DNA of 64,000 nucleotides. Source: a virus. Taxonomy: Duplodnaviria; Caudoviricetes. Shown here one piece after another: positions 3,654 through 56,100 of the stretch. The stretch spans positions 8,024-72,023 of the IMG/VR virus record IMGVR_UViG_3300046011_007348. One strand, written 5' to 3'. The notes beneath the pieces were generated by a model. The model was not told the DNA's origin. It saw only the letters and a list, made by a program, of their open reading frames with translations, and did not search any database. Every line of letters starts with the position of its first letter. The first letter of the stretch is position 1. The translations under genes and the position numbers were made by a program.

Positions 3654-3686
3654 TACCCGCTCTTGTTTAAGAGCGGGTATTTTTTT
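3654..3686 (+). terminator. Intrinsic terminator between convergent ERF and dnaN
   Basis: TACCCGCTCTT-GTTT-AAGAGCGGGTA followed by T7. Confidence 0.85.
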
Positions 3687-36451: not shown

Positions 36452-36925
36452 TTAAAAATCTAAAGCAATGAATGAGTTTATTTTAGCACTTAACTTTAAG
36501 CTGTACGTTGTGTAATCCACAATAATAAATGACTCAGCCCAATCAGATGGATTTGTGTTGCTAAAAAATGTTGCCTTGACTCTTGCATAATAAGTAGTCT
36601 TAGGCATATTTGAAAACATGGCAAATGTCTCTATTGTGTTTTGAGCCATTTCCCATGCTCCTGTCAATCCTTTCTTAATCTCTACAACATATCCAATTGT
36701 CCATGGAGAATTTTGCAAAGAACCATTGATTGTCTGTTGAGGTGGAAGCCAAGAAACATAAATATCAAAAAAGTTTGCTCCTTCCGTGATTGGAATACCA
36801 TCAGCTGATAGTTTACCAATTGGATTAGTTGATACTGTAACTTCTCTTGGAACTACATTAACGTTGGGAGCATTAGAAGACACTCGTTGAGGCAACGAAT
36901 CAAAAGCCCATTGTACTGGTGTCAT
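36452..36925 (-). CDS. Fibronectin type III-like protein (detached J C-terminal part)
   Basis: VSWLPP..GYVVEIK..TYYARVKA..SDW. Confidence 0.65.
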   Translation of the reverse strand: MTPVQWAFDSLPQRVSSNAPNVNVVPREVTVSTNPIGKLSADGIPITEGANFFDIYVSWLPPQQTINGSLQNSPWTIGYVVEIKKGLTGAWEMAQNTIETFAMFSNMPKTTYYARVKATFFSNTNPSDWAESFIIVDYTTYSLKLSAKINSFIALDF

Positions 36926-38856
36926 ATTGTTGACATACTATCAATAAAACTATATTTAGTACTATCATATTCTGATGCAGTAATTTCATGCATACCTTCA
37001 ATCGTTTCTGAAACAGGCACTCTATTTATTACTCGATATTGTTTAGGAACAACAGAATTGCCGGATAATATCCAGTTAGATTCAGGTGGTGGTGCTGCAC
37101 TAAAAGCAGAAGTTACTGTGACAACTGAAGTTGTATTAGCAGTGTTTTGTATTGTTTTTTGTTGCCAAGTACCATCACTCAAAGTAACACTAATTTGATA
37201 TGTTTGCCCTACCACTAACGTCACTGGACTATCTAGATTAATTGTGGTTGTAGTAGCTGAAATAATTAATCCTCCAGCACGCATTTCTAATCGTTCAGAG
37301 TCAGATACAGCAATAATATCTCCTGGTTTTATAAAAGCTGCATAAGCTCTAGCTTTAAATGTTACTGTCTCTTGTTCTAATCTATCAGAAATTAAAGCTG
37401 CCACTCCTGCTCGTCTTGCTTGTCCTCTGCTAGTGCATGCAATAGCTTCTAATTCTAATTCTTTAATTCCCCATTTTTGTATAGCAATTGGATCTTCTAC
37501 CATCTCAACTGTTTTGCGGTAAAAATCAGCTGGATTTAGCCAACTTACTAATGCTACAGTTTTTTTGGATTTTAGCCCAACTCTGCTATATATAAAAACC
37601 CCATCTTCAACATCTGCTTGCGTAAATTGGTATTTAATAGCATCTGGTTTATCTGCAATAAATGTTATTGTTCCAGCCTGCCAATAAGCAAATCCTCTAA
37701 ATATTGATATTAAAGATTCCAGTACTTGATATGCTTCTGTTTTAGATTGTAAGACAATATTACATTGAAATCTTGGCTCATAAATTGGGCTACCATTTGT
37801 GCTATATCCGCTTGGAACTAATTCATTACAGTATTTACTAATTTCGTATAATCCCCATTTATCTATTTGTTTAGTATCAATATACTTGCCAAGTCCATAT
37901 CTAGTATTTGTAATTAAATCATATAAAATCCATGCTGGATCTGAAACAGCTACGTTTGGCGTTTGGAAAACTCCATTCCAAACACCTTCGTAAAGAATAC
38001 GTCTATTCAATCCATCTATTATGGCATTACTTGGAACTTGTACTAATCTCCCAAAAACTTCAAATAAGACATTTGGGACTGAGCTAAACCCAGATGTGTC
38101 AAATGAAAAAGCTGTTAAAGCTGTATTTGGATAATTTAATTTTTTGTTTGTAATTTTTGCGTAAGAAACAAACGACATACTGCGTTGATATCCAGTCTTT
38201 TCAGTTTCTGCATTATCTAAAGTAAGTTTGATAACTTTAATAGATAAATTACCCAACCCAGTAACTGGAGGAAATCTAAATCTATAATCAAATTCTGTTG
38301 GGCTTGAATAACGCCCAGAAACTACATTGTAATAAGTAAATAATGTTTCATAAGCATTATTTACTTCTCGTTGTATAATAATTTGAAATTCTATATTAGT
38401 TGTTTCAATATTACCATTATCTGGATTCTGTCTTTGCATTTGAAAAGACAATTTTACTTTAACTTCATCAGGAATACCACCTTGAATTTGTTGAGTAACA
38501 CCAAGATTATTTCCTTCTCCATTCCATTCTACTGCTGCATTTACAGATATTTCGTTTGAAATAGTATCTCCAAATCCAAATAATTCAATTGGTGGTTGAA
38601 TTTGAGTTCCTGCACGATAGTCAAATTGAACATTCTTGAAATTATCACTATTATCTTCATTTTTGACTGGAGTTTCATCTAGATAAACTCTAGTCAATGG
38701 ATTTGTCCCAAAACCTTGTATTGGGCCTTCTGAGATTGCTCCTAAAATGTAAGCAATCGAAGTACTTGTCCCTGTCACTCTAGCAACATTAGGAGTTCCT
38801 CTTCCTCCTTTACCGCCGCCACTTCCTTGGATTTTTTTATGTTTTTTGTGTTTCAT
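36922..38856 (-). CDS. Central tail / host specificity protein J-like
   Basis: ISEGPIQG, YLDETP, YPNTAL, DPAWILYDLITNTRYGLG, ACTSRGQARR. Confidence 0.93.
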   Translation of the reverse strand: MKHKKHKKIQGSGGGKGGRGTPNVARVTGTSTSIAYILGAISEGPIQGFGTNPLTRVYLDETPVKNEDNSDNFKNVQFDYRAGTQIQPPIELFGFGDTISNEISVNAAVEWNGEGNNLGVTQQIQGGIPDEVKVKLSFQMQRQNPDNGNIETTNIEFQIIIQREVNNAYETLFTYYNVVSGRYSSPTEFDYRFRFPPVTGLGNLSIKVIKLTLDNAETEKTGYQRSMSFVSYAKITNKKLNYPNTALTAFSFDTSGFSSVPNVLFEVFGRLVQVPSNAIIDGLNRRILYEGVWNGVFQTPNVAVSDPAWILYDLITNTRYGLGKYIDTKQIDKWGLYEISKYCNELVPSGYSTNGSPIYEPRFQCNIVLQSKTEAYQVLESLISIFRGFAYWQAGTITFIADKPDAIKYQFTQADVEDGVFIYSRVGLKSKKTVALVSWLNPADFYRKTVEMVEDPIAIQKWGIKELELEAIACTSRGQARRAGVAALISDRLEQETVTFKARAYAAFIKPGDIIAVSDSERLEMRAGGLIISATTTTINLDSPVTLVVGQTYQISVTLSDGTWQQKTIQNTANTTSVVTVTSAFSAAPPPESNWILSGNSVVPKQYRVINRVPVSETIEGMHEITASEYDSTKYSFIDSMSTI

Positions 38857-39875: not shown

Positions 39876-40203
39876 GAGTTATCCTATTATTCCTTTGGTT
39901 CCAAATTGGGACAGCACAAAGTCAGAGCAATCAAATATTATTGTAACTAAATACCAGCCTAACACAATTGAGGCAAGATCATCAAGAACTAAAATCAATA
40001 CCACAAATGTTACTTTCTCTGTGTCTGTTAATATAACTAATGGAACTGCTGTAGACACATTCTTGAGAGAACGTAATGGCAAAGCATTTAGAGTGGAAAA
40101 TGACACTATGCTTTACTCTTGTACAGAATGGACTATACAAGCATTGGGAGAAGGTATTGATTTATTCTCAGCTACATTTGAACAAGTTAGGAGATTTTTA
40201 TGA
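39874..40203 (+). CDS. Minor tail protein M-like, copy B
   Basis: VDTFLRERNGKAF..CTEW..SATFEQV; ATG 39874. Confidence 0.75.
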   Translation: MSYPIIPLVPNWDSTKSEQSNIIVTKYQPNTIEARSSRTKINTTNVTFSVSVNITNGTAVDTFLRERNGKAFRVENDTMLYSCTEWTIQALGEGIDLFSATFEQVRRFL

Positions 40204-40931
40204 TTCCAAATTTATTAAGTTTGAATCCAGATTCATTTATAGAATTATATGAAATATATAAATACAGAGTGGAAGATATAAATAAAGATGAAGCTGCACA
40301 AAATCCTAACGTGCCATCAACAATGATTGAAACAATTAGGATTGGTAGTATAGCTATTGATGAAAACACACCATGGGTTGTCTTTGAAGGCAAAACTTAT
40401 TATGCAGTTGGATGCCAAGGAGAAGGATTTGATTTAATCGGACGTGGTACTATTCCTACTCCAACATTAACTGTATCTAACGTTGGTGGTATTTTAACTA
40501 AATGGCTAAAAGACAGTAGAGATCCAGCATACAGACTGGAAGGCACACACGTCAAAAGGCGCGTGACTCAAAAAAGATTTTTAGATGGACAAGTAGATGC
40601 TAATGCTGGGGTAAAAGAACTGCCAATACAAATTTATGTTATTGAACAGCTAGTAGAAGAGAACTATACTAACGCAAAATTCAGACTTGGATCTGCCTTT
40701 GACGTTGAGGGAATAACATTGCCAGCTAGAGTAATGGTGCGTAGCTGCACTTGGGTATATCGTAGTCCAGAATGCAGTTACGCTAATCCTGCAAAATTTA
40801 CAATAAATAATGAGCCAACCCAAAATGCAAGTGAAGATTTCTGTGCAAAAACTATTGCAGCTTGTGAAACAAGATTTGGTGCAGGCAGTATATTACCATT
40901 TGGTGGATTCCCAGGATTAAATACTTACTAA
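40200..40931 (+). CDS. Minor tail protein L-like
   Basis: FIELYE, PTPTLTVSN, CTWVYRSPECSY, CAKTIAAC..RFG..LPFGGFPG. Confidence 0.92.
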   Translation: MIPNLLSLNPDSFIELYEIYKYRVEDINKDEAAQNPNVPSTMIETIRIGSIAIDENTPWVVFEGKTYYAVGCQGEGFDLIGRGTIPTPTLTVSNVGGILTKWLKDSRDPAYRLEGTHVKRRVTQKRFLDGQVDANAGVKELPIQIYVIEQLVEENYTNAKFRLGSAFDVEGITLPARVMVRSCTWVYRSPECSYANPAKFTINNEPTQNASEDFCAKTIAACETRFGAGSILPFGGFPGLNTY

Positions 40932-41128
40932 ACCTCGGATTCGTTGCGTTTTAATTTCATGTATATCTTTATCTTGTTCCGTAGTTCTAGCTCCTGTATT
41001 AATCCACTAACAACTAATCTATTCACAATTGAACTGATAGATTCTTCTGTTTCTTGATGGATTGATTGTAAAACAGCAAAAACATCAGTTGATACAGACA
41101 CGGAAACTTGTTTCATATTACCTCTCAT
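40928..41128 (-). CDS. Ribbon-helix-helix (CopG-like) regulator
   Basis: KQVSVSVS strand followed by two helices (SISSIVNRLV). Confidence 0.65.
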   Translation of the reverse strand: MRGNMKQVSVSVSTDVFAVLQSIHQETEESISSIVNRLVVSGLIQELELRNKIKIYMKLKRNESEV

Positions 41129-41196: not shown

Positions 41197-41493
41197 ATGG
41201 AGGTAACATACATGGAAATTATAACTAAATTTAAGCCTATCCCAGACAAATATTCCTCTTTGGATAGACTCATGTGTCCACTAGAATTTAAACAAAAGTG
41301 GAAATTAACGATAGACGAGATGTCTTGGGTGCTGCAAATTAGTCCGGATACTTTTAAATCTTGGGCTGTACCTGAGACAAGTGCCAAAAGCAGAAAAACA
41401 CCTTTAATTGCTTTTGTTGCTTGCAAAGCATTAGACACTCTTTGGGAGCAGCAAGGTATGCCCAACGTTAGAGTTTTGATGAATTTACATTAA
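41197..41493 (+). CDS. HTH-like regulator (start may be 41212)
   Basis: LTIDEMSWVLQISPDTFKSW. Confidence 0.6.
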   Translation: MEVTYMEIITKFKPIPDKYSSLDRLMCPLEFKQKWKLTIDEMSWVLQISPDTFKSWAVPETSAKSRKTPLIAFVACKALDTLWEQQGMPNVRVLMNLH

Positions 41494-41592
41494 AAACTAA
41501 TTTAATTACAAAAACTGTGTACTTTGTCCACGCTATTTGTGTACAGAGTACACTTGCTTTATATATACTTTATTCTTATAGTTTAAGCATAG

Positions 41593-41638
41593 TTCCAGAA
41601 ACATTCCAGAAATAGTTCGGAAGTAAGACGGAAGTAAG
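41593..41638 (+). repeat. Four 11-bp-phased CRGAA repeats upstream of FtsK operon
   Basis: Cores at 41596, 41607, 41618, 41629. Confidence 0.75.
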
Positions 41639-41646
41639 GAGGAAAA

Positions 41647-42021
41647 ATGGATACAGACATCTTGTATCCTGTTAAACACAAAAGACAGTATAGGAGGAAA
41701 ACTCAGTCATCGGTGGTGCTATCTGATTGCACCAGAGAAGCAATTGCACTTGAGCTGGAAGTATCTACTAGAACTGTTCAAGAGTTAATCAGAATTGCAT
41801 CAACGTATATTGATTTGTTTAATGAGTATACAGATGACAATTACAGATTAAATGGTTTGCCGATAGATTCAAAACAACAAGTTGAAGTGTTAAGGCAAAT
41901 TAGACAAGTTAGACAAAAGTACAGACACGTCAAAGACAAGTCCTTTATTAAGAAGGAGTATCAAAAAATCAACCAAAGAGTTAAGGAGGAACAAAATGGC
42001 AGTCAAGAAAGCAACAGTTAA
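41647..42021 (+). CDS. HTH DNA-binding protein
   Basis: TREAIALELEVSTRTVQELI; AGGAGG RBS. Confidence 0.7.
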   Translation: MDTDILYPVKHKRQYRRKTQSSVVLSDCTREAIALELEVSTRTVQELIRIASTYIDLFNEYTDDNYRLNGLPIDSKQQVEVLRQIRQVRQKYRHVKDKSFIKKEYQKINQRVKEEQNGSQESNS

Positions 42022-42598
42022 AGATGTCGCAGCATCAATTGGCTGGACAGTCAAAGAGTTGGTAACAAGACTAAATCAAGAGCCTGGCATTAATGTCGCT
42101 CCTAGTGAAGCTTTTCCGACTTTGTCAGAGGACAGCGAGTTGTGGAAGCAAATCCAAGCTGCTGCTCAAAAAAGTCAAGTTAGTCAAGAGCCAGTTAAGG
42201 AGTCTGTCGCTATTGGAGAAGGCGAGATTAGTCCATACCAAGCGCCAATAGAAACAGTTGAGACATTAGCTGAAGCTCAGAAAGTATTAGCAGAAGAGAC
42301 AACTGGCATTCAAGTAGAACAAGCTCGTATACTTGGCTCTGTTGCTGGCATTAATGAAACCATTACATATTTTACAGCACGCCAACAAGTCACTGAAGCA
42401 TTGCTTAGACATCATATTGAGCAACAAACTAATCTCACAGATAGTTTAATCGGAAAAGCCAAAGAATCTTCATTTGAACTGCACAAGCAGACAAGGAACA
42501 GCTTGTCAGGAGCCTATGAATTAAAAAAAACTCTAGAAGAGCAAAAAGCCAGGTTGAAAAACATAGTGACGCAAATGACACAATCATTTGGGATGTAA
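41996..42598 (+). CDS. N-terminal HTH-like + coiled-coil protein
   Basis: TVKDVAASIGWTVKELV; helical E/Q/A-rich tail; A8 slippery run at 42523-42530. Confidence 0.7.
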   Translation: MAVKKATVKDVAASIGWTVKELVTRLNQEPGINVAPSEAFPTLSEDSELWKQIQAAAQKSQVSQEPVKESVAIGEGEISPYQAPIETVETLAEAQKVLAEETTGIQVEQARILGSVAGINETITYFTARQQVTEALLRHHIEQQTNLTDSLIGKAKESSFELHKQTRNSLSGAYELKKTLEEQKARLKNIVTQMTQSFGM

Positions 42599-42663
42599 TC
42601 AGACTGGTTAATGAATCGACTTTAGCGCAAATAGAGTTAGCAATATCGATTGGGCAAATTGAG

Positions 42664-42894
42664 ATGCTTCAGCAAATTCTAAAAAGAAGAAAGGAGTTAA
42701 TTAAAATCATGATTGACACATTGTTAGGAGTATCAAGTGTAGCAGGAGTAGCGACTATAGCAAGTTATTTTGCTGTTGCCACTGCTGTAGTCAATCCAGT
42801 TGTATTAACGGCATTAGGTGCAGCTGCTTTTTTAAGTGGTGTCTATATGCAATTTTCATCATCTAATTCAATTCAAATTACCCGGAGAAAATAA
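42664..42894 (+). CDS. Small 2-TM membrane protein (own RBS at ATG 42709; frame open from 42520)
   Basis: Two hydrophobic helices; AAGGAG RBS. Confidence 0.7.
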   Translation: MLQQILKRRKELIKIMIDTLLGVSSVAGVATIASYFAVATAVVNPVVLTALGAAAFLSGVYMQFSSSNSIQITRRK

Positions 42895-42895
42895 C

Positions 42896-43153
42896 ATGTT
42901 TAACGGAAAAGAACAAATCACAAGTCGTGTAGTAACTCAGATTACTAATACTAAGTTGGAAAATGGTGGTACTTTGCATGACAAAATAGAAACGCATTAT
43001 TCACCAATTAATTCACACGTTGACAACGCGCTGTCCGGTGTCCTTGTGCCTTTATCGATTGCTGCTGGCTTGTGTGCATTTGTTGCAGTATCTAACTGGA
43101 CAGCACCATCACAGTGTCAAAGTCAGGCACAAGTTCAATCTGCTCATAAGTAA
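42896..43153 (+). CDS. Small single-TM protein
   Basis: GGAG RBS; VLVPLSIAAGLCAFVAV. Confidence 0.65.
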   Translation: MFNGKEQITSRVVTQITNTKLENGGTLHDKIETHYSPINSHVDNALSGVLVPLSIAAGLCAFVAVSNWTAPSQCQSQAQVQSAHK

Positions 43154-43161
43154 GGTGACAC

Positions 43162-43572
43162 ATGCTTAGCACATTGAAAGGATTTTTCTCTAACACAGGA
43201 GACAAATTAGAAAACATTTTGTATGGAGTCAATAAGCCAATTTTCCCATACGTTTACGAAGTAAGTGAGGAGGAAGTGAAGCAAATTACTGAAGACGCAA
43301 CTGCGACAGAACAAATGGCTGCAAGAGTAAAAACATATCTAAAAGCAGTGGAAAGAAAAACCAAAAGTGTTGAAGAAATGTTTAATGCAAACAATGCTTT
43401 TGAAAAGTCAATGATGGCAACTGCTGAAAGATTAAATGACAAGAACAAGATGATGTATGCCGCTCGAAAGGAATACAAAAAACAATTGCCTTTTAGCGTC
43501 AAAAGGTACTTGCACCCAGCAAGGATTGTAGGCGATTCTACAGCAAACATTATCAAAGGAATTTGTCAATGA
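43162..43572 (+). CDS. Coiled-coil hypothetical protein
   Basis: AAGG RBS; helical heptads. Confidence 0.65.
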   Translation: MLSTLKGFFSNTGDKLENILYGVNKPIFPYVYEVSEEEVKQITEDATATEQMAARVKTYLKAVERKTKSVEEMFNANNAFEKSMMATAERLNDKNKMMYAARKEYKKQLPFSVKRYLHPARIVGDSTANIIKGICQ

Positions 43573-43826
43573 TGGAAGACGAAAGAATGACAGATATTCA
43601 GAATTCAGCAAGGTGGATGTTAGGAGCCAATCAAATACTAATCGTCATAGCTTTTGGTGCTTTTACTGGCTATTTATCCCGCTATTATCCACCTTCTAGT
43701 TCTGTCACGATAACAGTAATTACGTTTGCATGTATTTGTGGATTTCTGTTTCCAGCTACAAGAAAAATACTACTTTTAGTTGGAATATTTTATGGACTAG
43801 GACTTGTCCTTAGTCATTTGAATTAA
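43563..43826 (+). CDS. Small 3-TM membrane protein
   Basis: Three hydrophobic segments. Confidence 0.7.
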   Translation: MSMMEDERMTDIQNSARWMLGANQILIVIAFGAFTGYLSRYYPPSSSVTITVITFACICGFLFPATRKILLLVGIFYGLGLVLSHLN

Positions 43827-43890
43827 TTGTTTGGGAGGTGCCAAGTGGATACCATTACTTGCCTCCTTATTCATTTTAAAGGGAGGTATT

Positions 43891-45723
43891 ATGTTCTTTT
43901 TTAAATCAAAAGCAAAGCCTAAAGTTGTACACAAGAAATTTGAATTAAGTCCAGTTGTGTTGTACAACTTAATTGGAGTAACAATTTTAGTTTTTACACC
44001 TGCAATGATTAGCTGGAAAAATGCTAAAGAGTTGCGAGTAGCAAGTAGTGCCGTAGCAGTAATGTACTCTATGGTATTGTTAAAATATGCCCAAAACAAT
44101 ATTGATGAAGCTGATAGACTTGCCATAGAAAAAGAGCATTACTTTACGGCTTATGCTAATGCTTCTGGGGATGTTTATTTAAATTCAGAACAACAAATCA
44201 AAAATGCTTTGCTGCCTCCTGCTTCTAGTCCAGAAGTAGACTTAGAAGTTCTGCATCCATTAGAAGATACACTCTTAAAATTAGGCATCAAAGCAACAAT
44301 AGATGGAGAGCCAATAGATTCTCCTACGTTTACTAGATTCAAGATAGTGCCTGACAAAGGAGTGCATTATCAAAAATTTAATAATTTGTCAGATACTCTA
44401 AAAGTTCATATGGGGTATGATACACCTCCACTGATTTCATGTCAAAGCAAGTATGTCTCGATTGATGTAGCAAAGACAGACTCAGAAAGACGTTTTTGTG
44501 AATATCAAGAATACTCAAACAATTTGAATTATTCTCTTGAGAAGTTCACTGTTCCTATTGGAGTTGACATCAACAACAATCTTGTTGAAGTGTCGTTATC
44601 AGATGCTAACTCCCCTCATTTATTGATTGCTGGAACTACTGGTAGTGGCAAGAGTGGTTGGTTAGTAGCTTGCATAACTAGTTTGCTGGATAGATTTCCT
44701 GCTGATAAATGCAGACTATTTTTGATTGATCCAAAGCTAGTTGAGTTTGATATTTTTGAAAAATACAAACAAGTTGAGTTGGTAACAAAACAAGAAGACG
44801 CTCTTACTTTGTTGCACAATTTACTTAACACAATGGAAAGTAGATATGAGCTATTCAAAAAACATAAAGCACGGGATTTATCTCAATACAATAGAGAAAA
44901 TCCTAAGAATATTATGCCACGAGTTGTGGTGTGTTTTGATGAATACGCAACATTCATGGTAGGAGACAGTAAAGATGATTTTAACGATTGTTTATCTCAA
45001 CTAGCACAGAGAGCGAGAAGTGCTGGAATACACCTTGTATTAGCTACTCAGCGTCCTGATGCGACAATTGTCACGCCTAGGATACGCTCTAACATACCTG
45101 CTCGCATTGCATTAAAGACTATCCAACACCAGGATAGTGCTATAATTTTAGGAGTAGAAGATGGCACTTTAAACTCCAAGAATTTGTGTGGTAAAGGTGA
45201 CTTAATTGCTAATTACAATGGCAAGCTAGAAAGACTGCAAGGATTGTATGTCAAAGATGTAGATTACACGTTATCAAATACTGAAATCAAGGAGTTAACA
45301 AATGTAGATTCACCTTACCAAAATGACGAAATTGCCTATAGCTATAGTGAAGCACAAGATAGCGAGAAAGGTGAAGTGTATACTCACTTCTCCAAAACAG
45401 CTCAAAAGGATAGTGTACAAGCATTTGAGTCTAAAAACAAATTTGTAACTAGCTTAGTGAAGCTAAAAATCGCTGCCTTAATGTCTGGGGATATAGACGA
45501 AACTGAGCCGTTATTTGATGATAGTTATGGGCTGTCATCAGAGCAGCAGCTTTTAGTGTTGAAGTTTTTTCTAGACAAAAACATAGGCAAAGAACGCACA
45601 ATTAAAGCTCTATGGGGAACAAGTTCTGGTGGTAAAAATCATCATAAATATCAAAAATCAAGTGCTATTTATGATGACATGATATCTAAAATAAAAGAAC
45701 TTGAATACTTAACACAAGTGTAA
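43891..45723 (+). CDS. FtsK/SpoIIIE-family DNA translocase with 2 N-terminal TM helices
   Basis: GGAGG RBS; FtsK-alpha-like region; PHLLIAGTTGSGKS, LIDPKLVE, MESRY, VVVCFDEYA, AQRARSAGIHLVLATQRP, GKGDL. Confidence 0.93.
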   Translation: MFFFKSKAKPKVVHKKFELSPVVLYNLIGVTILVFTPAMISWKNAKELRVASSAVAVMYSMVLLKYAQNNIDEADRLAIEKEHYFTAYANASGDVYLNSEQQIKNALLPPASSPEVDLEVLHPLEDTLLKLGIKATIDGEPIDSPTFTRFKIVPDKGVHYQKFNNLSDTLKVHMGYDTPPLISCQSKYVSIDVAKTDSERRFCEYQEYSNNLNYSLEKFTVPIGVDINNNLVEVSLSDANSPHLLIAGTTGSGKSGWLVACITSLLDRFPADKCRLFLIDPKLVEFDIFEKYKQVELVTKQEDALTLLHNLLNTMESRYELFKKHKARDLSQYNRENPKNIMPRVVVCFDEYATFMVGDSKDDFNDCLSQLAQRARSAGIHLVLATQRPDATIVTPRIRSNIPARIALKTIQHQDSAIILGVEDGTLNSKNLCGKGDLIANYNGKLERLQGLYVKDVDYTLSNTEIKELTNVDSPYQNDEIAYSYSEAQDSEKGEVYTHFSKTAQKDSVQAFESKNKFVTSLVKLKIAALMSGDIDETEPLFDDSYGLSSEQQLLVLKFFLDKNIGKERTIKALWGTSSGGKNHHKYQKSSAIYDDMISKIKELEYLTQV

Positions 45724-45737
45724 TATTAAATATTGTG

Positions 45738-45801
45738 TTAGTTCCGTTTTACTTCTGTTGTAGTTCTGCTTTACTGCTGAAGTATTACCGGAATTTAACC
45801 G
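45738..45801 (-). repeat. Six 11-bp-phased repeats downstream of FtsK, inverted relative to 41593-41638
   Basis: Plus-strand cores TTCCG/TTCTG/TTCTG/TGCTG/TACCG/AACCG at 45742, 45753, 45764, 45775, 45786, 45797. Confidence 0.7.
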
Positions 45802-45899
45802 GTATTTTGGTGTTAACACATTGCCAATACTGTAAGTAGCTGGGAACAGCAAACAGTCTTAATAGTTCACTCACGTCAAACAAATCCAGTAAGCAAATT

Positions 45900-46478
45900 A
45901 TGATTAAAAACGATAAGTGGATTCTAGAAGAATGTAAAAAAGGGATGATTCAACCATATGAAACACAACTTGTTAAATACAACAATGGCAAGCGAATTAG
46001 TTATGGATTATCTTCTTATGGTTATGATATTAGTTTGTCTGACACAGAATTCTGGGTGTTTAGAAATGATAACAATACTGTTGTCAACCCCAAGAATTTT
46101 ATTAGAACAAATCTAGAATCTGTGCCTTTGCAAAAAGATGAATATGGAGAGTTTTTTGTAATTCCAGCCCACTCTTATGGATTGGGAGTTGCACTAGAGA
46201 AAATTACAATGCCTGACAATGTAACTGCTGTTTGTGTTGGTAAAAGCACTTATGCCAGAGTTGGATTGATTGCTAACATCACTCCTGTTGAAGCTGGATG
46301 GAGTGGACATTTAACATTAGAATTTAGCAATTCTTCCGGTGCTGACTGCCGAATTTATGCAAATGAGGGAATAGCACAATTACTGTTTTTTGAAGGTGAG
46401 ACTTGCTCTACAAGCTATAGTCAAAGACAAGGCAAGTATCAAGATCAGCCTGAGAAAGTGGTATTCGCTAAAGTCTAA
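45900..46478 (+). CDS. dcd: dCTP deaminase
   Basis: ISYGLSSYGYD, GKSTYARVG..NITPVE, IYANEGIAQLLFF, GKYQDQ. Confidence 0.96.
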   Translation: MIKNDKWILEECKKGMIQPYETQLVKYNNGKRISYGLSSYGYDISLSDTEFWVFRNDNNTVVNPKNFIRTNLESVPLQKDEYGEFFVIPAHSYGLGVALEKITMPDNVTAVCVGKSTYARVGLIANITPVEAGWSGHLTLEFSNSSGADCRIYANEGIAQLLFFEGETCSTSYSQRQGKYQDQPEKVVFAKV

Positions 46479-47165: not shown

Positions 47166-50100
47166 CTATCTTTTAAGTATTCCACCCTGTCTTTGTTGAC
47201 GTTGTATTTCTACTATTACTGCTGTTTTAATAGCACTCTGCATCGCATTTGGATCTATGGACGGTGATTTGTCACCATCTTGACTTTCAATCGTTATAGG
47301 CACATTTACAGTTGTATTTGTTGTTGGTTGATTAATATTTCCTAGTCCAGGAGATGGGGGAATAACTCCACCACTTGCAAAGTTCATTATGTTTCTTACT
47401 TTTAATTCGCTATTGCTTACGTTGCCTCCCATGGCATAGTTCATTACGGATTCAATATTGTTGTTTTTAATTGCTTTATCTAATCCCATCGACTGGAACT
47501 TAGCATTGTCAGCAACACTCAACACTCTTTCTCCTGGCGTTAATACTGCTACTACTGGTGTTATTCCTCCATTTGCAGCTTTCTCTCTGACAATTGCTTC
47601 ATTTAATGATTGAATTATGCCTCCACCAGCATAGTTCTTGATTACTCCTCCTTTGTATTGGCTGGATACTTCGCCTCCATCGTTGGCACTTGGGACTTCG
47701 CCGCCGCTATTTCCTCCAAATATTCCTCCAATTGATTTGAATAATGAATCAAGAATCCCTCCTGCTCCTACTAATGATTGCATTAATGATTTGATAGCTA
47801 TGTTGATAAGTCCGTTTAGCATGTTTTTAGCTAGGTTGTTTAAGACATCGTCTAGTTTTTGGACACCCATTATTACGTCTGTAAGCCCAGCTGATAAATC
47901 ATTGATCAAAGAATCTCTAACCATTTGACGGATTGTCGAAACTACATCCTTAGCTGCGTTTTTAGACTCTTCTAGTTTTGCTTTGTATTTTTCTTCAATC
48001 TCCTTAGTTCTTTCTTCATATTCCTTGTCATCTATATCCCCCCCCTCTTTTTCTTTCTTTGCTTTATCTAGTTCGTCTTGTTTCTCTTTTTTTAAACGCT
48101 CTTCATCCATCCTCCGTTGTTCTGCATTTATTTGAAACTGATTGCCACCTTTGTCTCTATATATATTTAATCTTGTTTGAGCCGTTTCTTGTTTCATGGC
48201 AATGACAGTTTGCTTAATATCTTTTGTTAAATCTGTCATTAACTTGGTTTGCATTTCTTGGTTTTTCCGTACAAGATCTGTTCTTTGTTCCTCATTCAAC
48301 AAAACGCTTGCATTAATTTGAGCCTCACGCAAAGCAGTTGCTTTCTCGATTTCATACCGTCTTGATGCAAATTCACTTTTAGAAAAATTATAGTCAACAG
48401 AGTTCATTAAATCTCTTCTTTCAAACCTCCTGTCTACTTCTGTTTTAGTTTCGTTAGCTTTATCAATTTCAAGCTGAGATTGGTTTTGTATTCTTTTTAT
48501 TCTAGTAATTTCTCTATATTTTTCTATTCTTGCCTCTGCGTCTACTGAGGTTAATAGTCCTTTTGCTACTAACTCCTTTGTGTTTAATTCATATTGTGAT
48601 AAAGCATCTTCAATTTGAAGTTTTCTCTCTTCAAATTGCAACTCTGGCACTGAACGGATATTTAATAACTGCATTTGGTTAAATGGCATAAGTCCTTCAG
48701 CGAAAGAATTTTGTATTTGCGAATCTTGTGTTACAGGGAAATAAGTATTGCCTTCCAATTTGTATTCATCCATACCACCAAATCCAAATTTGCTTCTAGG
48801 CTTCATTAGTTCCGTTAAATTATTAAATCTTGGTTCATTGGGGTTTGCTGTTGGCTTTTTCAGCTCTTCAATTAACCGTAAACCCTTCAATTCATCTACT
48901 AATTTAGCATTCTCCTTAATACTTTGATTAAACTTTGGTATATCTGAATGCAATTTATCAACATCTATGTTATATTGCTTAATGTCTGAGTCAGTCATCT
49001 GGATTGCTTTAGGATATATTTCCTGTAGCCTTAAGACTTCTTTGTCCAATCTTTGTCCTTCCGTCTTTTGCTTTTGAAAGATTTCTTCTAGGTATCCCTT
49101 TTGTTGTTCTGGTGTCGTAAAATCAATTGTCCCTACTCGTTTGATACTAAACTTTGGATCTACTTGTTCTTGGAATTTTATTTTCCCCCCAGAATACTCT
49201 CCTATCTCTCTACCCTTTTGACTTATATCTAATTCAGCTTGTCTTAAAACATTATCCGAATCTCTTATTTTAGATCTATTCTCATACTCTCTTCTAAGCC
49301 TAGACATTGCTTTAGTTAATTTAATCCTTTCTTCAATTTCTTTCTTTTGAACGTCTATCGACTTCAAGGTAGTATCTAAAGTTGCTATATCCACTTTGAA
49401 TCGAGAGGCTAATCGTTGTTCGTCTTTGTTAAGGCGATCTAGATATTTCTCTCTTTGTTTTACATCTGTGATTTGCTCAAGCCCTTTCCTGAGTGGGTTA
49501 AACAAAGCTAACGTATCAGTTAGTTTACCATCGGTTCCTTTTACAAAGGATTGTCTAAGAGAATTTAATCTCTCTTGGATATCTTGTCTTGTATCATTTA
49601 ACTTATTAAGAGTGTCGGTTAACTTTATGCTTTCGGGTGTTAGTGGATCGGGTAATTTATCAGGAGAATATTCGTTAAGTATGTCAGAAAACGATCTTAC
49701 TAAACTATTAGTGGAATCCCTAGACTCTCTGATTGTTTTTTTAGTATTTTTAAAGAAATTATCAAGATTACGAATAACTGATGCTTCGTTTTGTTTTCTT
49801 AAAGCTTCAGCACGCTTTTTGTTTGCTTCATCTTGTTGTTTAAGAATCTCTTCCCTTTGTTTTTGAGAATCTGCGATAGCACCAGTGTTTACGCCAGCAG
49901 ATGGAGAAGTAGAGCCAGTATTAGCAGCGCCAGTATTGGCAGTCTCAGGATTATAGCTTCTAGCTCTCTGGAAAGTTTTCATGCTATCGCTATCTCCTAC
50001 AAATCGCCAGTGCCATGGTTCATAATCTATACCTTGACGATTATTCTGAGGAAAAGATAATTCAAAGCCAAAACGAGCAGCGTTAGATTGTAACCATGAA

Positions 50101-53100
50101 AATGCTTTTGTTTTTTCAAATGTGGAATTGAGATTAGTTCCTGGTGCTGCTTTATCACCAATATCGACAGCATATCCTGTATGATGCTCACTATAACCCG
50201 GAGGAGCGCTAACTTTTGCTCTTTGTTCTGGAGTTTGATTGCGTTGGGCAGCTACTCCAAAAAACAATTGTCGTTGCTGTTGAATGGAACGAAAACCAGA
50301 AATAGGAACTAGAACTACACCTTCCTCTTTAGCTCTTCGTGCCATGTATTCAAATTTTTCAGCAGCAATTTGCCGTAGTTTAATTTTCCCGTCAGTTGTG
50401 ATAGGACTTAGCTCTTTCAGAGGTGCTTCGTTATAAGCTAAATGCCCATACTTGCTTTCATTGTTACTTGATGTGGTGTTTGACGCACTCCCTGCTCTAG
50501 CAGAAGCTGATGGCACAACAGCAGATATTGGCGTTTGCCCAGTTATAAAAGGTGTAGGATCTATTGCCCGTCCATTAACCCTTATCTCAAAATGCAAATG
50601 AGGGCCGGTGCCTACTCCTGTATTGCCTAATTTTCCTATTTGTTGTCCAGCTTGAACAACGTCCCCAACCCGAACCAACATTTCAGATAAGTGTGCATAT
50701 CGCGTTTCAAGTTTTTTATTGTCTGGTGTTGTATGTTCTATGTAAATTACCTTTCCATAGGCACCCTGAGTTTTAGCAATTTTTACTATGCCAGGTAAGC
50801 TAGAAACAATAGGTTCCCCAATTTGTCCAGCAAAATCCCTTCCTGCATGCCTTCTACCAGGACGAGGATCTCCAAAGTGCCCCCCGGGTACAGTCCTTCC
50901 TCTGTTTGGGTGCGGATGCACAAAACTACTAACGCTAGATGGTGGGTTTTGTGATGCACCGAAAAAACTAAATAAAGAAGAAAACACGCCTTGAACACCG
51001 TTAGAGTTAGATGAATTACTAGATGTCGAAGAGTTGTTAGTAGGAGTTGATGGAGCCGGTGTTGCATTAGAATAAGGATCTATTTTTATGCCCGCAGATC
51101 TCTCTAATAAATCAACAGTTTGTTGCAAGCTAACATTCATATTAGAAACAGATTCATTAGCTTTTACCATATTTTCATTTAATTTTTCGGTGTTTTTATT
51201 AGCCTCCCCCGACTCTTTAACAGTTTGTTGAGTCTGTTGAGTTACTTTTGCCGCTGATGCTCTAACTGCATTTATTAAAGCCTCTAGTTCTTTGCTTGAT
51301 TGTGTAAAAGCTTGTTTCATATCAGACTCAATATCTTCTGTGACTCCAATAATGTCTTTACCAGAAGGCAATGTCCTTATAAGTTCTCTTGCTTCTATTT
51401 GGCTATCTTTAATTCTATTTTTAAAATCTAAGCTAGTTCTTTCAGTATCTATTTGACTTAAAGCGGTTTGGTTTAATTGTTCTATGATAGATACCAACCC
51501 ATCTATATATCTAGTAAATTCAGTGTCTCCTAATCCGGTTAACGCTTCATTAATTTTGGTTTTAAAGTTAGCGTTTTGTATTTCTTGGTTAGCTTTTTTA
51601 ATCTCTAATCGCCCTTGATCTATCTCTTTAGTAACAGAACGAACGTAATCATCTACCTGTTTTTGTTGTTGTCTTAAAGACTCTTTTAAATCATATCTGC
51701 TTTTAGCTAATGAACTGCGAGCGGTAGCAAGGCTCGTGGCATCATCTTGAGTTTGTTTTCTTAATTCAGTTATTTTATCTTTAGCTTCAGTATTAAGATT
51801 GCTATCAGGTATTGTACTGAGTAAATCCAAAGCTGCCTTTCTCATTGTGAATAAACGAGACAACCCAGACACTCTTTGTTCTTGTGATATTATCCCAGAT
51901 CTCCGTGTTGCATAATCAACATCCCCAGGATTAGCACCGGAGCTATATATCCTTTCCTCTCTAAGTGCAGTAGATCTATCAATGTTTGCAGAAAACCTGT
52001 CGTAAGCAGCTTGAAATCTATTTAATGCAGATAAAGTATCTTTGTAAACTTGTTCTAAAGGATTAACAGGGACACTTTTTTCAATGATTTGCTTTGCTTC
52101 CTGTGCAAAATCTTTCATCTCTTTAGCTATTTGCAGATAAGCACCTCTCACGGGTGCTGGAACAGTTTTTGCCGCATCCTCTAGTTTTTTCGCTTCTTCC
52201 AGTAAAACATTAGCCGAATTAGCGTTGGCTTCTACATCCTTAGCCAACTCTTTTCTTAATGCAAGTCTCTGAACTATTTGTTTAGATAAATCCGCAGCCC
52301 TCTTTTTTGACTCTGGGGTATTTTGTTGAGTTGCTTTTGATTTTTCAACAGATAAACCTAATACTTCTATGTCAATTTGTTTTAATCTATCAGCAACGTC
52401 TTTTACCCTAGCTTTATATTTGTTTTGAGTTTCCTTGGTTAACCCTAAGTTACCAAATTCTTTTTTGCTACTTTGTAAAACAGAATCAAAGTAATCTAAA
52501 TTATCAATTACCTGTTTAACTCCAAGTGTAATATCGTAATCAGTATCAGATACAAGTCCTTTTATATCATATTTTTTAAGAATTGCTTTTTGTTTAGGAG
52601 AGATTTTATCAGTTGCATATTCTCCCCCGAATCCAGTATTAATATTTTTATCAAGGCCACGCCTCCTGTTTTCCCCTTCTCTCTGCGCTACAATCTCTTC
52701 GTATTTGTTGTACTCCATTAACCCCAAACTGTTTTTATCTATTTCACCTCTTAATGCTTTATTTACATTTTTGACAAAATCGTCTGTAGTATATCCTTCT
52801 TCTTTCATCCCAAAAACATAAAAAATATCAAGCTGAAGCCCTTTTGAGGGAATAGAATCAGCAACGTTTTTATATCCTTTAGCCAACTCCTTGCTGCTTT
52901 TTTGGTTAACTTTAGAAGCTTCATCAACTTTTGCTAATGAATTACTAATACTTCCCAAAGCTCCATTAACAGATCTAGCCATTTCGCTAATGCTTTTCTG
53001 CATGGGGTTAGAAAAATCACTTCTAGCTAAAAACATAAAGGCTAGTGCTATACCAGCTTCTATCCCAATTTTTGCTAAGCTTTTTAATGATTTCATTAAA

Positions 53101-56100
53101 CCTGCAAGCATTTGAGACAAAGCTTGTCCCCATGCTGCTCTAGCGCTACTTGCAAGCATTCCATCGGAGCTAAATAAAAGAGTAAATGCTTTTATAATTC
53201 CAACAGATGTAATTGTTTTCCCCAGTGAAGTAAGTGATGCTCCAATTGCGTTTAAGCCTCCAACAACACCTTGAGTCCATGCAAAATTTAGAGCAGCTTT
53301 TAGCCCTTTAAAACCATTTCCTACAAGTTGGAATAATCCAACAAAAGAAGCCCCAATTCCTTGCCAAAATCCAGCCTTAAAGCCAGCTGTTATATTTGCC
53401 ATAAAACCTGCAAACGCTGCTTTTGTTGCGCTAATTCCATCTATAAAACCACCAAATATTGCAGATGCCCCGATTGTGGCTGGAAGCTGCTTAAAAAATC
53501 CAGTAAAAGAAGCCCATAGCCCTTTCATCTGAGTAGCTATTGTTGTTTTGGCAGAATAAAAAGCATATGCTATTTCATCTTGTAATCTAGTTCCTATGGG
53601 TGAACGTTGTTTAGACTCGACTTGAGCAGATAAGTCAAAAGTGTTTGTGAATAAAGACTGTATTCCTTTTGGAGAAATTGCTTCATTTTTCATCCCTACT
53701 AAAGACACTCTTATCCCATTAAGTCCCTGTAATAACCCCTTAAACATTGGCATCCCAAAATGTTTTGTAAGGGTAATTAATTGCTCAAACATTAAAACTA
53801 AAGCAAGCAGTTCAATTACACCAGAAGGAATAACTTTAGTTATATTGCCGATTCCATCAATAAAAGACTTAAAGGGGTTTTCACTTGGCTTTCCTACAAT
53901 AGTATCAAACAACCCTTTCCCAGTAATTTTTCGTTTTACACTATCCAAACTACTTAAAAACCATAGAATTCCATTACTTACGCCTTCATACATGTTTTGC
54001 ATTAATGTCTTCTGAGCGCCTAAAAAATCATCTAAAACATCAGCTAAAATGCCTAAGAAAAATGGCCCTAACGCACCCATAAGCGCGGCAATACCCGCCG
54101 TTAACAAACCAGATATATTCATTAAAAAAGTTTTTACTGGGTTCATTTTTAATAAGAAAACTAACCCAACTCCAAGAGTGGCAGTTACACCAATAACAAA
54201 GGAGCTAAAAATTTTGATTATATCGTCTAGGATTGCATTTATTGCGGACGCTATGTTTGAAAAGATATCAACTACAAACGAAAATAATCCACCAAAAGCA
54301 TTGACTAATTTAATAGACATTTCCATCCCAATGTTTTGCAATCTAGTTAGTGAGATAGAAAACCCTTCAGCTCCTTTTGCCGCCCCGCTATAGTCTATTT
54401 TTAATTGTTTTGCAACTTTGGGTAATACTTCTTCTGCTAGCAAACTACCTGCTGAGGACATTTCTATTAATTGGGGTATAGAAATGTCTAGTGCCTTTGC
54501 AAATATACCCATAGCGGGAGGGAATCTTTCACCCAGCTGCTGTCTTAATTCTTCCATGGAAATTTTGCCCTTGGACAGCATTTGAGTATAAGCCATAAAT
54601 ACTAACTCAGCGTCTTGCCCAGATATTCCTAGCGCGCCTAGTGATGCACTAATACCTTCAAATAAATCCCTAGCGCCTTCACCTTCTAATTTTGTTCCTC
54701 TAGCTGCAATAGCAATTTGGCTGTAAGCCTGAGTAGCTGCTTTAGCTGGAACGTTTAAGGCTTTGGCTGTGTTCATTGCATAATTAAGCTCTGCTTTCCC
54801 GCCTTCTTTTGAGCCACCCAAAAAGTTTAATCGCCTTTGTAATGGCTCTAACTCCAGCATGGCCTTAACAAGAGACTGTATTTGATTTCTAACCATAAAT
54901 ACAGCCCCACCAATAGCTCCAAATAACGGAAGCAAAGGTGTTACCAATGGTAATAAAGTTGTGGCAAAAGTTGTGATAGGAGCAAATACACTAGCGGCAG
55001 AAACAATAAATGAAAGCATATTCTTTTGAATATCCTCCCTTTCGTCTGGCGCAAAGTTTTTCATTTTATCTCGCTTGAATTGAGCGCCAATTGCATTCCA
55101 GAAATCTTTAAAAACGTTTTTAGGTACGACTATACCTCTTTTCCATTGAGTAACTATCTGATCCCAAATTTCTTTTGGGTTTTCAGCTCCTAATGCTTTT
55201 CTAACTTCTCTTTTAACGTCAGAACCAACATTTTTCCAGTTGGCAACAGCTTCATTAAACCCTTTAATTATGGCTTTACCAATATTTAACCCTTCCTGAG
55301 TAAATGCTTTGTGAAAAGCAGATATACCCAAAAGCAGAGCTGTTATTGCCATTTTTACCTGAGCTGTGTCTATTTTTATCCCCATAGTTGCGGCAACGTT
55401 TTGAAGCCCACTCGTCTTAAATAACTGTTGGGCTGTACGTGCTGTCATATTAACAGCGCCTTCAACATTCCCAGACGCATAAGCATTGGCTATCCTAACA
55501 GCTCTACCACCCAATCCATTGGTAGCAGAAAGCATTCCAGAATCAACAATTTTATTTATTAAAAAGTCTCTAATACTGTTAACAATCTTGCTATTTTTTT
55601 CTAAAATCCCTCTCAATAAATTACTATTCCCAGGGTTTTTAATAGTAAAACTATCAAACAGTGTTCTTAAAACTTGTCTAGCTAAGTCTTTAGCACCTGT
55701 TCCTTCTATACCAATAGAACTTATGTTTGTTTTAATTTGATTTTGAAGAGTTTGGGTTAAATTTTCCCTAGGGACATTTTCCCCAAGTGCTGGTAATTTA
55801 TCGCCATACACAGAACTAGCAAAACCAGCTACTTTTCGTCCAGCTTGCGCTAAAAAGGGTATGCTAGACAACGTTTTAAAAAATGGGTTTTCGCTACCTA
55901 TAAACAATCTAAATAGCTTGCTTATTCCAAAAGCTTGTCCCCCTTTATCTCCCATTTTATCTTCCCTGCCTAAATCAATTCCTGTAACAGACTTGATGAC
56001 AGAAGGCAACAACCCTCCTGGCTGGAAGATGTTGTTATTTTTTAAAAGATTAGAAGCAAACTGCCCTATCTTTCCTGCTTTATCACCTATCAGCCCTGGC

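Follow-up and report, generated by a model that had tools for sequence, protein, structure and literature searches.

The window analysed here is a stretch of 64,000 nucleotides (64 kb) from a tailed phage (Caudoviricetes; positions 8,024–72,023 of IMG/VR record IMGVR_UViG_3300046011_007348). At 41596–45804 on its + strand it carries an operon segment with promoter and terminator, and the last gene of the operon encodes a membrane-anchored FtsK-type DNA translocase. The source record is linear and has 72,023 bases, with a completeness of about 52% by CheckV. Judging from the relatives CrV-01T (CrV) and Cr-LKS4, which are cultured phages, the host of the contig is presumably a filamentous member of the Nostocales. 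The features of the locus are listed below. Transmembrane (TM) segments are hydrophobic stretches found by a Kyte–Doolittle scan, and HTH denotes helix-turn-helix.

40928–41128, − strand: small regulator of 66 aa, divergently transcribed (34.6% identity to CrV gp045, E 1.6e-6)
41197–41493, + strand: Cro/C1-like regulator of 98 aa, with a 93-aa form from ATG 41212 (35.6% identity to CrV gp046, E 1.7e-8)
41517–41569, + strand: two GTGTAC-N3-GTACAC palindromes, operator-like, overlapping a sigma-70-like promoter
41596–41644, + strand: upstream iteron array, five CRGAA cores at exact 11-bp spacing
41647–42021, + strand: p124, first operon gene, basic protein of 124 aa with a weak HTH signal (HTH_11, E 0.069)
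41996–42598, + strand: p200, 200 aa, with an N-terminal IF2_N/HeH-like motif (IF2_N, E 0.017) and a long helical region
42523–42529, + strand: slippery A AAA AAA run, a candidate −1 frameshift site joining p200 to p76
42664–42894, + strand: p76, small membrane protein with two TM segments (hydrophobic residues 12–64)
42896–43153, + strand: p85, small protein with one TM segment; a 105-aa form starts from GTG 42836 (TM residues 64–88 of that form)
43162–43572, + strand: p136, soluble helical protein of 136 aa (27.4% identity to CrV gp051, E 1.2e-13)
43563–43826, + strand: p87, hydrophobic residues 44–87, three TM segments in the alignment
43831–45723, + strand: membrane-anchored FtsK-type translocase, 630 aa; the recorded form of 610 aa starts from ATG 43891
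45538–45720, + strand: HTH-like C-terminal domain of the FtsK protein (residues ~570–630)
45742–45790, − strand: downstream iteron array, CGGAA, CAGAA, CAGAA, CAGCA and CGGTA at 11-bp spacing
45786–45812, + strand: intrinsic-terminator-like hairpin TACCGGAATTTAACCGGTA followed by a T-run; the hairpin (45786–45804) closes the unit

The seven open reading frames (ORFs) of the operon are all on the + strand and are tightly packed. The overlaps are 26 nt for p124/p200 and 10 nt for p136/p87, and p87 ends 4 nt before the FtsK ORF. The gene content and order agree with the initial annotation, which had described a tightly coupled operon of small proteins and a membrane-anchored FtsK. The promoter-like site is TGTACA-18-TATACT at 41540–41569. 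A search for GTGTAC-N3-GTACAC gave two matches, both at this site, and the count is not significant by itself (33 of 100 shuffles reach 2).

The operon had also been described as preceded by ribbon-helix-helix (RHH) and HTH regulators. The HTH part is borne out by the homology of the 98-aa regulator to CrV gp046, for which the depositors give 'Cro/C1-type domain protein', and the 66-aa regulator appears RHH-like according to its sequence pattern. No Pfam match was obtained for the former and no PHROG family match for the latter. Among the 14 phage loci examined, every locus that extends far enough upstream has the 66-aa gene at the same position, in reverse. By reading of translations, ORFs resembling the 98-aa regulator precede the cassette in a Roholtiella contig and in a genomic island (L155), both described below.

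Nine ORFs lie between the tail-tip gene L (40200–40931; 58.7% identity with CrV gp044) and a dCTP deaminase gene (45900–46478). A J-like tail protein is encoded at 36922–38856, so that lambda-like tail-tip proteins J and L are both present in the window, and a 4453-aa ORF at 47166–60527 (− strand) is homologous to the tape measure protein of Cylindrospermopsis phage Cr-LKS4. The operon thus sits among tail genes, as first noted.

The FtsK protein consists of an N-terminal TM pair (hydrophobic residues 6–25 and 37–61), an alpha/beta motor (residues ~133–476), a linker and the C-terminal HTH-like domain. It matches Pfam PF01580 (1.9e-33) in one stretch of its 630 residues and PHROG 1358 'FtsK/SpoIIIE-like' (7.1e-72). 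The PF01580 match and the N-terminal TM segments confirm the membrane-anchored FtsK/SpoIIIE ATPase proposed at the outset. The best PDB match is Pseudomonas aeruginosa FtsK (2iuu, 1e-40) over query residues 133–476, and Walker A, Walker B and ATQRPD are conserved. FtsK_alpha (PF17854) gave 20.7 bits, slightly under its cut-off of 22.9, and is listed in the precomputed Pfam annotation of a relative (P0003). The N-terminal membrane anchor, the linker, the RecA-type alpha/beta motor and the Walker motifs are shared with cellular FtsK/SpoIIIE. Cellular FtsK has four TM segments. The window protein differs in its two predicted TM segments, in the lack of PF09397, and in its setting on a mobile element, with an accessory operon of its own and repeats at the flanks.

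An FtsK-family ATPase and small membrane proteins could also export a small helical protein such as p136, in the manner of type VII secretion. EccCa, EssC and YukB are the second-best matches, and small TM proteins are paired with small helical proteins in the operon. However, the NCBIfam order is FtsK (131 bits, 3.6e-38), EccCa and EssC (103 and 92 bits), then TraB, none over cut-off. In the PDB the 2iuu match at 1e-40 is far above EssC 4nh0 (8.6e-22) and YukB (8e-17), and the alignment takes in the FtsK alpha region. One PF01580 domain is present against the tandem ATPases of EssC/EccC, without FHA or other extra domain; no WXG100 family match was found in Pfam or NCBIfam; and the HTH-like C-terminal domain occurs also in a nuclease fusion. 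The type VII reading was rejected on the score hierarchy and the single ATPase domain, and we regard it as extremely improbable. With regard to a grouping with EssC, which the initial annotation had named as an outcome against its proposal, the protein scores as a true FtsK over EssC, and the tree given below places it among cyanobacterial FtsK-type motors.

The PDB also gave 'DNA translocase coupling protein' entries (6o1w–6o1z, 2e-18), which we take to be TcpA of Clostridium perfringens pCW3. TcpA is likewise a membrane-associated FtsK-family ATPase of a mobile element, but its score is far under that of FtsK. TcpA works with a relaxase-type conjugation apparatus. In contrast, VirB4 (PF03135), relaxase (PF03432) and TrwC (PF08751), and also tyrosine integrase (PF00589), gave no match in the 72-kb record, which is about 52% complete, in line with the earlier statement that relaxase, VirB4 and type IV secretion genes are not visible. 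A plasmid-type Rep was not seen in the record on reading of its gene matches. The TraD match (NCBIfam, E 0.0021, 16.6 bits against a cut-off of 366) does not place the protein among the type IV coupling proteins.

Phage records matching the FtsK protein number 375, and coverage of at least 80% is found only in CrV-01T (RM-2018a) and Cr-LKS4, both with 40% identity. The FtsK proteins of Cluster J mycobacteriophages, Bacillus phages and Streptomyces phages are likewise phage-encoded FtsK motors, but the identity is 29–34% over the motor alone, and the available parts of their descriptions report no operon of small membrane proteins and no flanking arrays. The Cluster J proteins have no membrane domain and have divergent C-terminal DNA-binding domains (PMC3706429). 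Phage FtsK proteins are described elsewhere as of unknown role.

A quick IQ-TREE analysis was performed with 52 motor regions (7 cassette proteins, 39 selected from 120 listed matches, and six chromosomal proteins of Nostocaceae). The FtsK proteins of the phages and of Roholtiella fall into one clade (SH-aLRT 100). This clade joins the island pair described below, cyanobacterial nuclease–FtsK fusions and Nostocaceae chromosomal FtsK-like proteins (SH-aLRT 93), apart from the gamma-bearing cellular FtsK proteins. PF01580 is over its cut-off in 81 of 121 sampled Nostocaceae genomes, mostly in open frames of ~850–900 aa. All six Nostocaceae chromosomal proteins have an exonuclease-like N-terminus and no TM-like segment in the visible 747–756 residues, and a canonical membrane-anchored septal FtsK is not evident among these six. 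Since no TM segment is visible in them, a membrane-anchored FtsK may be a capacity that the element brings to its host.

Two side observations concern the relatives. The Nostocaceae chromosomal FtsK-like proteins (L104–L123) and the proteins P0004–P0017 are fusions with a 3'-5' exonuclease and/or a PD-(D/E)XK nuclease, and their visible parts have no TM segment. A 49%-identical FtsK (L021/P0003) lies on a 1,519-bp contig in an 'Actinomycetales bacterium' metagenome-assembled genome (MAG) and is probably a mis-binned phage fragment.

The upstream cores CAGAA, CAGAA, CGGAA, CGGAA and AGGAA start at 41596, 41607, 41618, 41629 and 41640, and the last core overlaps the Shine–Dalgarno sequence of p124. 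The downstream array is inverted with respect to the upstream array and begins 19 nt past the FtsK stop codon. The pattern CRGAA-N6-CRGAA-N6-CRGAA, with at most one mismatch, has five matches in the 64 kb, all at 41596–41644 (+) and 45742–45779 (−). The expected number is 0.02, and none of 100 shuffles reaches five. CGGAA-N6-CGGAA has six matches against 0.77 expected, and five of the six are at the two flanks. With generic repeat finders the arrays appear just as weak 2-copy matches.

Repeats with an 11-bp period are located directly 5' of the first operon gene in the CrV-type loci and in two plasmid loci as well. In the CrV-type loci their sequence differs (AGATTAAGACC, 2.5 copies). In Roholtiella, CGGAACTCAAT is repeated in 7.7 perfect copies ahead of the operon, and an inverted array of 2.7 copies is located ~370 bp behind the FtsK gene. 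The window and Roholtiella share the CGGAA core, the 11-bp period and the bracket arrangement, although their FtsK proteins are just 37% identical. These results indicate that the phased repeats flanking the operon, as they had been described, are strongly non-random and recur in a distant copy.

Synteny of the homologues had been proposed as a check on the operon. Thirteen loci were obtained from IMG/VR by profile search. They fall into three clades (two are called B and C here), in which the FtsK identity is 98–99%, 50% and 40–42%. Conservation was examined in 14 loci, 12 from IMG/VR and the two cultured phages. The whole cassette is spanned in 12 loci, and two are cut at the contig end. In all 12 the order is L, reverse regulator, Cro-like regulator, p124, p200, 2-TM protein, 1-TM protein, p136, p87 and FtsK. 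The identities of the cassette proteins range from 22% (p200) to 65% (p87). In five clade-C-type loci p200 is below the 1e-3 BLAST limit, yet it aligns over the full length. The cassette is thus syntenic in three phage clades and, as described below, in a contig of a cyanobacterial genome.

In the cultured phages the cassette corresponds to CrV-01T gp045–gp053 (MH636380) and Cr-LKS4 g47–g55 (OQ625504). It is orthologous gene for gene and follows the tail-tip gene L. The reverse small regulator and the Cro/C1-type protein come first, and the last of the seven ORFs behind them encodes a membrane FtsK that has this C-terminal domain as well. The differences are the identities (22–42%), the repeat sequence and the downstream neighbours. 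All cassette genes in these records are annotated 'hypothetical' save FtsK and the Cro/C1-type protein. In the available main text of two AlphaFold surveys of CrV-01T, FtsK, gp047, gp048, gp051, gp053 and a translocase are not mentioned, and the main text of a third paper on these phages does not mention FtsK either. No account of the operon was found in the literature on CrV/Cr-LKS phages, phage FtsK and cyanobacterial TraB-type plasmids.

Conservation is lost on the downstream side. Directly behind FtsK, the window and clade B have the genes for dCTP deaminase, a 216-aa membrane protein and the tape measure protein. In Cr-LKS4, as a separate observation, these three genes are more than 12 kb away, and the cassette stays attached to the tail gene L through this rearrangement.

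The cassette is not confined to phages. An FtsK of 609 aa with 37% identity, the C-terminal domain included, is encoded on a contig of aff. Roholtiella sp. LEGE 12411. BLAST matched the FtsK alone in this cassette. By reading of translations, the FtsK is preceded by Cro-like, p124-like, p200-like, 2-TM and 1-TM ORFs and two more membrane ORFs. Phage structural genes are absent from this contig of 25.7 kb. Two genomes contain an island variant with an FtsK of 729 aa (42–45% identity over the motor). It ends in the HTH-like domain and a GIY-YIG/UvrC-like extension, and it is preceded by small HTH-like, helical and TM ORFs.

Small proteins with one to three TM segments are typical of holins. The operon might therefore be a chance neighbourhood or a lysis cassette, in which holin-like or membrane-remodelling proteins merely stand beside a phage FtsK. 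Against this, the order is kept at identities of 22–65%, the ORFs overlap or abut between one promoter-like site and one terminator-like hairpin, the same composition is found in non-phage contexts, and a separate endolysin candidate (Peptidase_M15_3) is encoded 10 kb off. The lysis reading was judged unlikely on the conserved order, the non-phage copies and the distant endolysin candidate, and we give it very little weight. We read the operon as a self-contained mobile-element module, and not as a set of phage morphogenesis genes.

The last ~90 residues are conserved in all the cassette FtsK proteins. The profile of this C-terminal domain matched no Pfam family and gave no PDB sequence match. 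The initial annotation had proposed to look for a gamma-like winged helix at this position. A different domain, all-helical and HTH-like, is predicted instead, and PF09397 is absent. AlphaFold models have a mean predicted local distance difference test (pLDDT) value of 75.7 (6 sequences) or 83.5 (40 sequences) and no beta wing. In the first wide structural search, unrelated helical proteins were dominant. With an exhaustive structural aligner, the top matches are HTH DNA-binding domains, namely DesR (Z 5.9, root-mean-square deviation 1.7 Å over 48 residues), LsrR, EsrB, the phage G20C small terminase (Z 5.4), sigma region 4 and KorB (range Z 4.4–5.9). According to these models, the domain is probably a tri-helical HTH that would do the job of FtsK gamma or of the TraB winged helix.

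A single-sequence search with residues 535–630 found only the protein's own cluster, and a single-protein search for related loci found only copies with 98–99% identity. An alignment-based search gave 340 proteins with the domain at E ≤ 0.001. Among the best 120 domain matches, the 14 that are named comprise 10 from Microcoleus, two from Tychonema, one from Roholtiella and one from a Sericytochromatia MAG. The domain profile (E ≤ 0.01) matched in 20 of 401 sampled genomes of the order. Thirteen of the places were fetched: nine are ORFs of 511–676 aa, two are the island FtsK proteins, one is a HerA-like/GIY-YIG protein and one has no match. One of the 340 is a GIY-YIG (T5orf172) protein of 281 aa (P0121), with two tandem copies of the domain behind the nuclease, and this arrangement fits a DNA-recognition module. 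As a side observation, P0121 and the island FtsK (L155, 10287–12476) look like nuclease-coupled versions of the same recognition module.

The proteins of 511–676 aa are nucleoside triphosphatases (NTPases) without a Pfam or NCBIfam family, with N-terminal TM segments, a helical stretch and a P-loop. Only the C-terminal domain is in common with the phage FtsK. By hhalign, the phage FtsK and the plasmid NTPase align from Walker A to the C-terminus (probability 98.2, E 5.5e-14, 317 columns). The NTPase genes end operons of small, partly membrane proteins on plasmid-like replicons, which carry DUF3854-D5_N-DUF5906 or AAA_25 replication proteins, ParM/ALP or ParA, and tyrosine recombinases. Examples are pMIC7113.06 of Allocoleopsis franciscana and pCC7120gamma of Nostoc PCC 7120.

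In order to see the distribution of the two plasmid NTPase types, the 72,556 plasmids of PLSDB were searched, and 34 and 10 records were matched (42 distinct). All 42 belong to Nostoc, Tolypothrix, Aulosira, Microchaete, Calothrix, Oscillatoria, Leptolyngbya, Allocoleopsis, Pseudanabaena or Annamia. We take these genera, and also Microcoleus, Tychonema and Roholtiella, to be filamentous cyanobacteria. Among the 44 record matches, 24 are typed non-mobilizable, and thus the NTPase is not merely part of a type IV secretion system. As controls, Rep from one of these plasmids matched 43 records, including the unicellular Gloeothece (3) and Rippkaea (1) and also enterobacteria, and ParA at E 1e-40 matched three records, a limit that is too strict. 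Enrichment in filamentous hosts, which had been proposed as a check, is thus suggested by the census of genera and is not statistically significant.

Another alternative is a role in conflict, in which the pump would act on foreign or host DNA (superinfection exclusion, expulsion or degradation of incoming DNA, or takeover of the host chromosome). The nearest motor relatives are PD-(D/E)XK- or 3'-5'-exonuclease–FtsK fusions, and the island variant has the C-terminal GIY-YIG/UvrC-like domain. The cassette is moron-like in its place between tail genes and in having its own regulators, and the PHROGs class of the phage FtsK is 'moron, auxiliary metabolic gene and host takeover'. Plasmids with relatives also carry defence-like genes (DUF499, DUF1156, SNF2 and NB-ARC). 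However, the window FtsK has no nuclease domain in the Pfam scan, and recognition-type repeats are present on the element itself, at both operon ends, and co-occur with the cassette in a distant copy. Such a role is unlikely.

As for the small proteins, the initial annotation had called the first two products an HTH protein and an HTH–coiled-coil protein. The HTH assignments are weakly supported by the HTH_11 and IF2_N matches given in the feature list, and the coiled-coil character appears as weak Pfam matches to coiled-coil families. IF2_N matches all five p200 family members (best E 0.0014). p124 shows 30.8% identity to CrV gp047 (E 1.7e-15), its nearest Protein Atlas clusters are cyanobacterial hypothetical proteins (score 0.91, 176–179 shared features), and a p124-like ORF was judged to be present in the Roholtiella cassette. 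No hydrophobic stretch was found by the Kyte–Doolittle scan in p124, p200 and p136. p136 has no family match in Pfam, PHROG or NCBIfam, and its Protein Atlas result was uninformative.

Among the membrane proteins, p76 shows 39% identity to CrV gp049 (E 3.6e-12), and p87 is the best conserved small member (64% identity to clade B and 39–43% to clade C). p85 is the least conserved member of the cassette; a BLAST homologue (74%) is found only in one locus (L004), and ORFs of 78–81 aa with one TM segment occupy its position in clades B and C. As an observation apart, the 74% identity of p85 to L004 3423–3680 stands beside cassette neighbours at 97.5–100%, and this looks like a local hypervariable or exchanged patch.

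A −1 frameshift may join p200 to p76. The −1 frame is open from 42520 into the ORF 42664–42894, and the slippery run is located just after the −1-frame stop. In all six cassettes compared (the window, clade B, three clade-C-type loci and Roholtiella), the 2-TM ORF is in the −1 frame of p200 and is open 73–88 nt back into the p200 end. The three clade-C-type loci have A AAA AAG, so that a canonical heptamer A AAA AAA/G is present in four of the six cassettes. It is absent in L009 and L102; clade B and Roholtiella have shorter A-runs only. If programmed, the shift may give p200, a DNA-binding candidate, a two-helix membrane anchor.

A role in tethering or partition would also be in accord with such a product. 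In that case the module would anchor replicating or carrier-state DNA via p200 on the iterons, and FtsK would resolve, position or segregate the copies within the cell. The parC site of plasmid R1 is a centromere/operator with 11-bp iterons, and the 11-bp iterons directly 5' of the operon follow this grammar. The NTPase operon lies directly behind ParM and a small ParR-like gene in pMIC7113.06 and pCC7120gamma, the module has its own Cro-like/RHH-like switch, and the candidate frameshift would yield a membrane-anchored DNA-binding protein. However, the NTPase-bearing plasmids already encode ParM or ParA systems, integrase and plasmid-type Rep were not seen in the 72-kb record, and the full alpha/beta motor with a TM anchor is the architecture of a septal translocase. 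Relatives in culture, moreover, were used as lytic phages (10.1101/2023.10.04.560878). Compared with ParABS, ParMRC and TubZRC, iterons and DNA-binding candidates are likewise present, but the NTPase is an FtsK-type pump. We consider tethering or partition possible but doubtful.

The well-described system nearest in layout is that of the Streptomyces plasmids pSVH1 and pIJ101, which the initial annotation had drawn on as an analogy. Here the FtsK-like pump TraB moves double-stranded DNA (dsDNA) in conjugation, with intramycelial spreading; clt consists of direct 8-bp repeats recognised by TraB; and three to seven diverse spd genes encode small membrane or DNA/peptidoglycan-binding proteins with overlapping stops and starts and without conserved families (PMC4447253). 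The phage operon resembles this system in an element-encoded, membrane-associated FtsK-like pump, in short repeats beside the pump gene, and in an operon of diverse small, mostly membrane proteins (six small ORFs in the window, three with TM segments). A dedicated repressor, hosts that grow as multicellular filaments (presumably so in the present case) and relatives on small relaxase-free plasmids are further points in common. The layout, the repeats and the relatives in filamentous genera thus speak for the analogy, whereas membership in TraB does not hold. The motor is nearest to cyanobacterial FtsK-type proteins and the C-terminal domain does not appear to be a winged helix. In contrast to clt, the window repeats are 5-nt cores in 11-bp phase in two inverted arrays. 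The regulators are Cro-like and RHH-like against GntR in Streptomyces, a tailed phage in a phylum of diderms is the carrier, and the system is known here from its genes.

We tentatively favour, as somewhat short of an even chance and ahead of the alternatives above, an iteron-guided pump that would act on the dsDNA of its own element and move it at or through septa. It would be an analogue of TraB/clt/Spd and not a TraB member. On this basis we class the operon as a putative FtsK-type mobile-element DNA translocation system. The pair of Cro-like and RHH-like regulators would control a single transcript. This transcript would code for helical adaptors that bind DNA (p124, p200 and p136), for the three small membrane proteins and for the FtsK-type dsDNA pump, a hexamer anchored in the membrane. 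Either the pump or one of the adaptors would recognise the DNA of the element at the two inverted, 11-bp-phased CRGAA arrays, analogous to clt or to the FtsK-orienting polar sequences (KOPS), by means of the C-terminal HTH-like domain in place of FtsK gamma. The small membrane proteins would form a membrane scaffold or conduit, and the p200/2-TM frameshift product may tether DNA to the membrane. Phage dsDNA would then be moved at or through the septal membranes of the filamentous cyanobacterial host, out of a closing division septum or into a neighbour cell. Gene content, motor family, repeats, conservation and the distribution on phages, plasmids and islands are observed, whereas we infer the DNA specificity, the assembly of the proteins into a complex, its place at the septum, the transport direction and the gain for the phage.

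A further step is that the replicating phage genome would pass septum-wise into filament neighbours without virions, and that relaxase-free plasmids and islands of filamentous cyanobacteria, as a large class not recognised so far, would use this machine for their transfer or spreading. The module would then stand in cyanobacteria where TraB conjugation stands in actinomycetes, with a recognition domain and CRGAA iterons of its own. This extension is conceivable, and we hold it to be rather unlikely.

Several results weigh against the iteron-guided septal pump. The winged-helix gamma domain of FtsK (PF09397) gave no match at E ≤ 0.1, and the TraB family NF041214 gave 60.5 bits (E 1.1e-16) against a cut-off of 800 bits. 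For the C-terminal domain, every fold match is below Z 8, and Foldseek against the PDB found nothing at E ≤ 0.001 with either model. No peptidoglycan-binding or hydrolase domain was detected in the cassette by the Pfam scan. The upstream array is located in the 5' leader over the ribosome-binding site and could simply be an operator for autoregulation. Some plasmid versions are in one operon with ParM and a ParR-like gene, which fits segregation as well as transfer. When the phage small proteins were compared with the plasmid accessory proteins by hhalign (7 × 8 family pairs), no pair exceeded 40% probability, and the seven cross-family pairs inspected in detail were all at 0.7% or less. The bias to filamentous hosts rests on database sampling; the absence of unicellular hosts among the 42 records is suggestive and not statistically firm, because the Rep control has just four unicellular-cyanobacterial records among the named genera of its 43. 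Finally, the cultured relatives behave as lytic phages, and a virion-independent route is therefore not obviously needed. Cylindrospermopsis phage relatives were used in that way to collapse cultures (10.1101/2023.10.04.560878).

If the septal pump is correct and confined to mobile elements of filamentous cyanobacteria, septal DNA pumps would be linked with growth as multicellular filaments for a second time, independently. The pump would also provide a possible virion-independent spread of phage along filaments, in a lineage of bloom-relevant cyanophages, and a mechanism of transfer or maintenance for many cyanobacterial plasmids typed non-mobilizable. To our knowledge, the mycelial actinomycetes are the only organisms in which FtsK-type transfer of dsDNA from cell to cell has been established. 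Even if the role is segregation or exclusion, the unnamed C-terminal domain of DNA-recognition type, the phased CRGAA arrays and the conserved candidate −1 frameshift site are new. The module is experimentally accessible, as versions are present in the cultured phages CrV-01T and Cr-LKS4 and on plasmids of the model strain Nostoc PCC 7120.

The other phage genes of the window encode a DnaB-type helicase, an ERF recombinase, a DNA polymerase III beta clamp, a large terminase, a sigma factor, tail tube proteins, an M15 peptidase and an SF2 helicase. The Peptidase_M15_3 protein (30939–31679, − strand, 4.5e-22) is the likely endolysin, ~10 kb away from the FtsK operon. The sigma factor (23416–24375, − strand) has Sigma70 regions 2 and 4 and a C-terminal InsA-type zinc ribbon. 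The Cr-LKS4 record (L019/L020) contains two CRISPR arrays and, near its right end, a large inverted duplication of ERF, DnaJ-domain and HTH genes. In the window, the DNA polymerase III beta clamp (3685–4797, −) is complete with its three domains, and 60604–62007 (−) encodes a thymidylate-synthase-like protein fused to PterinBD-DUF4346.

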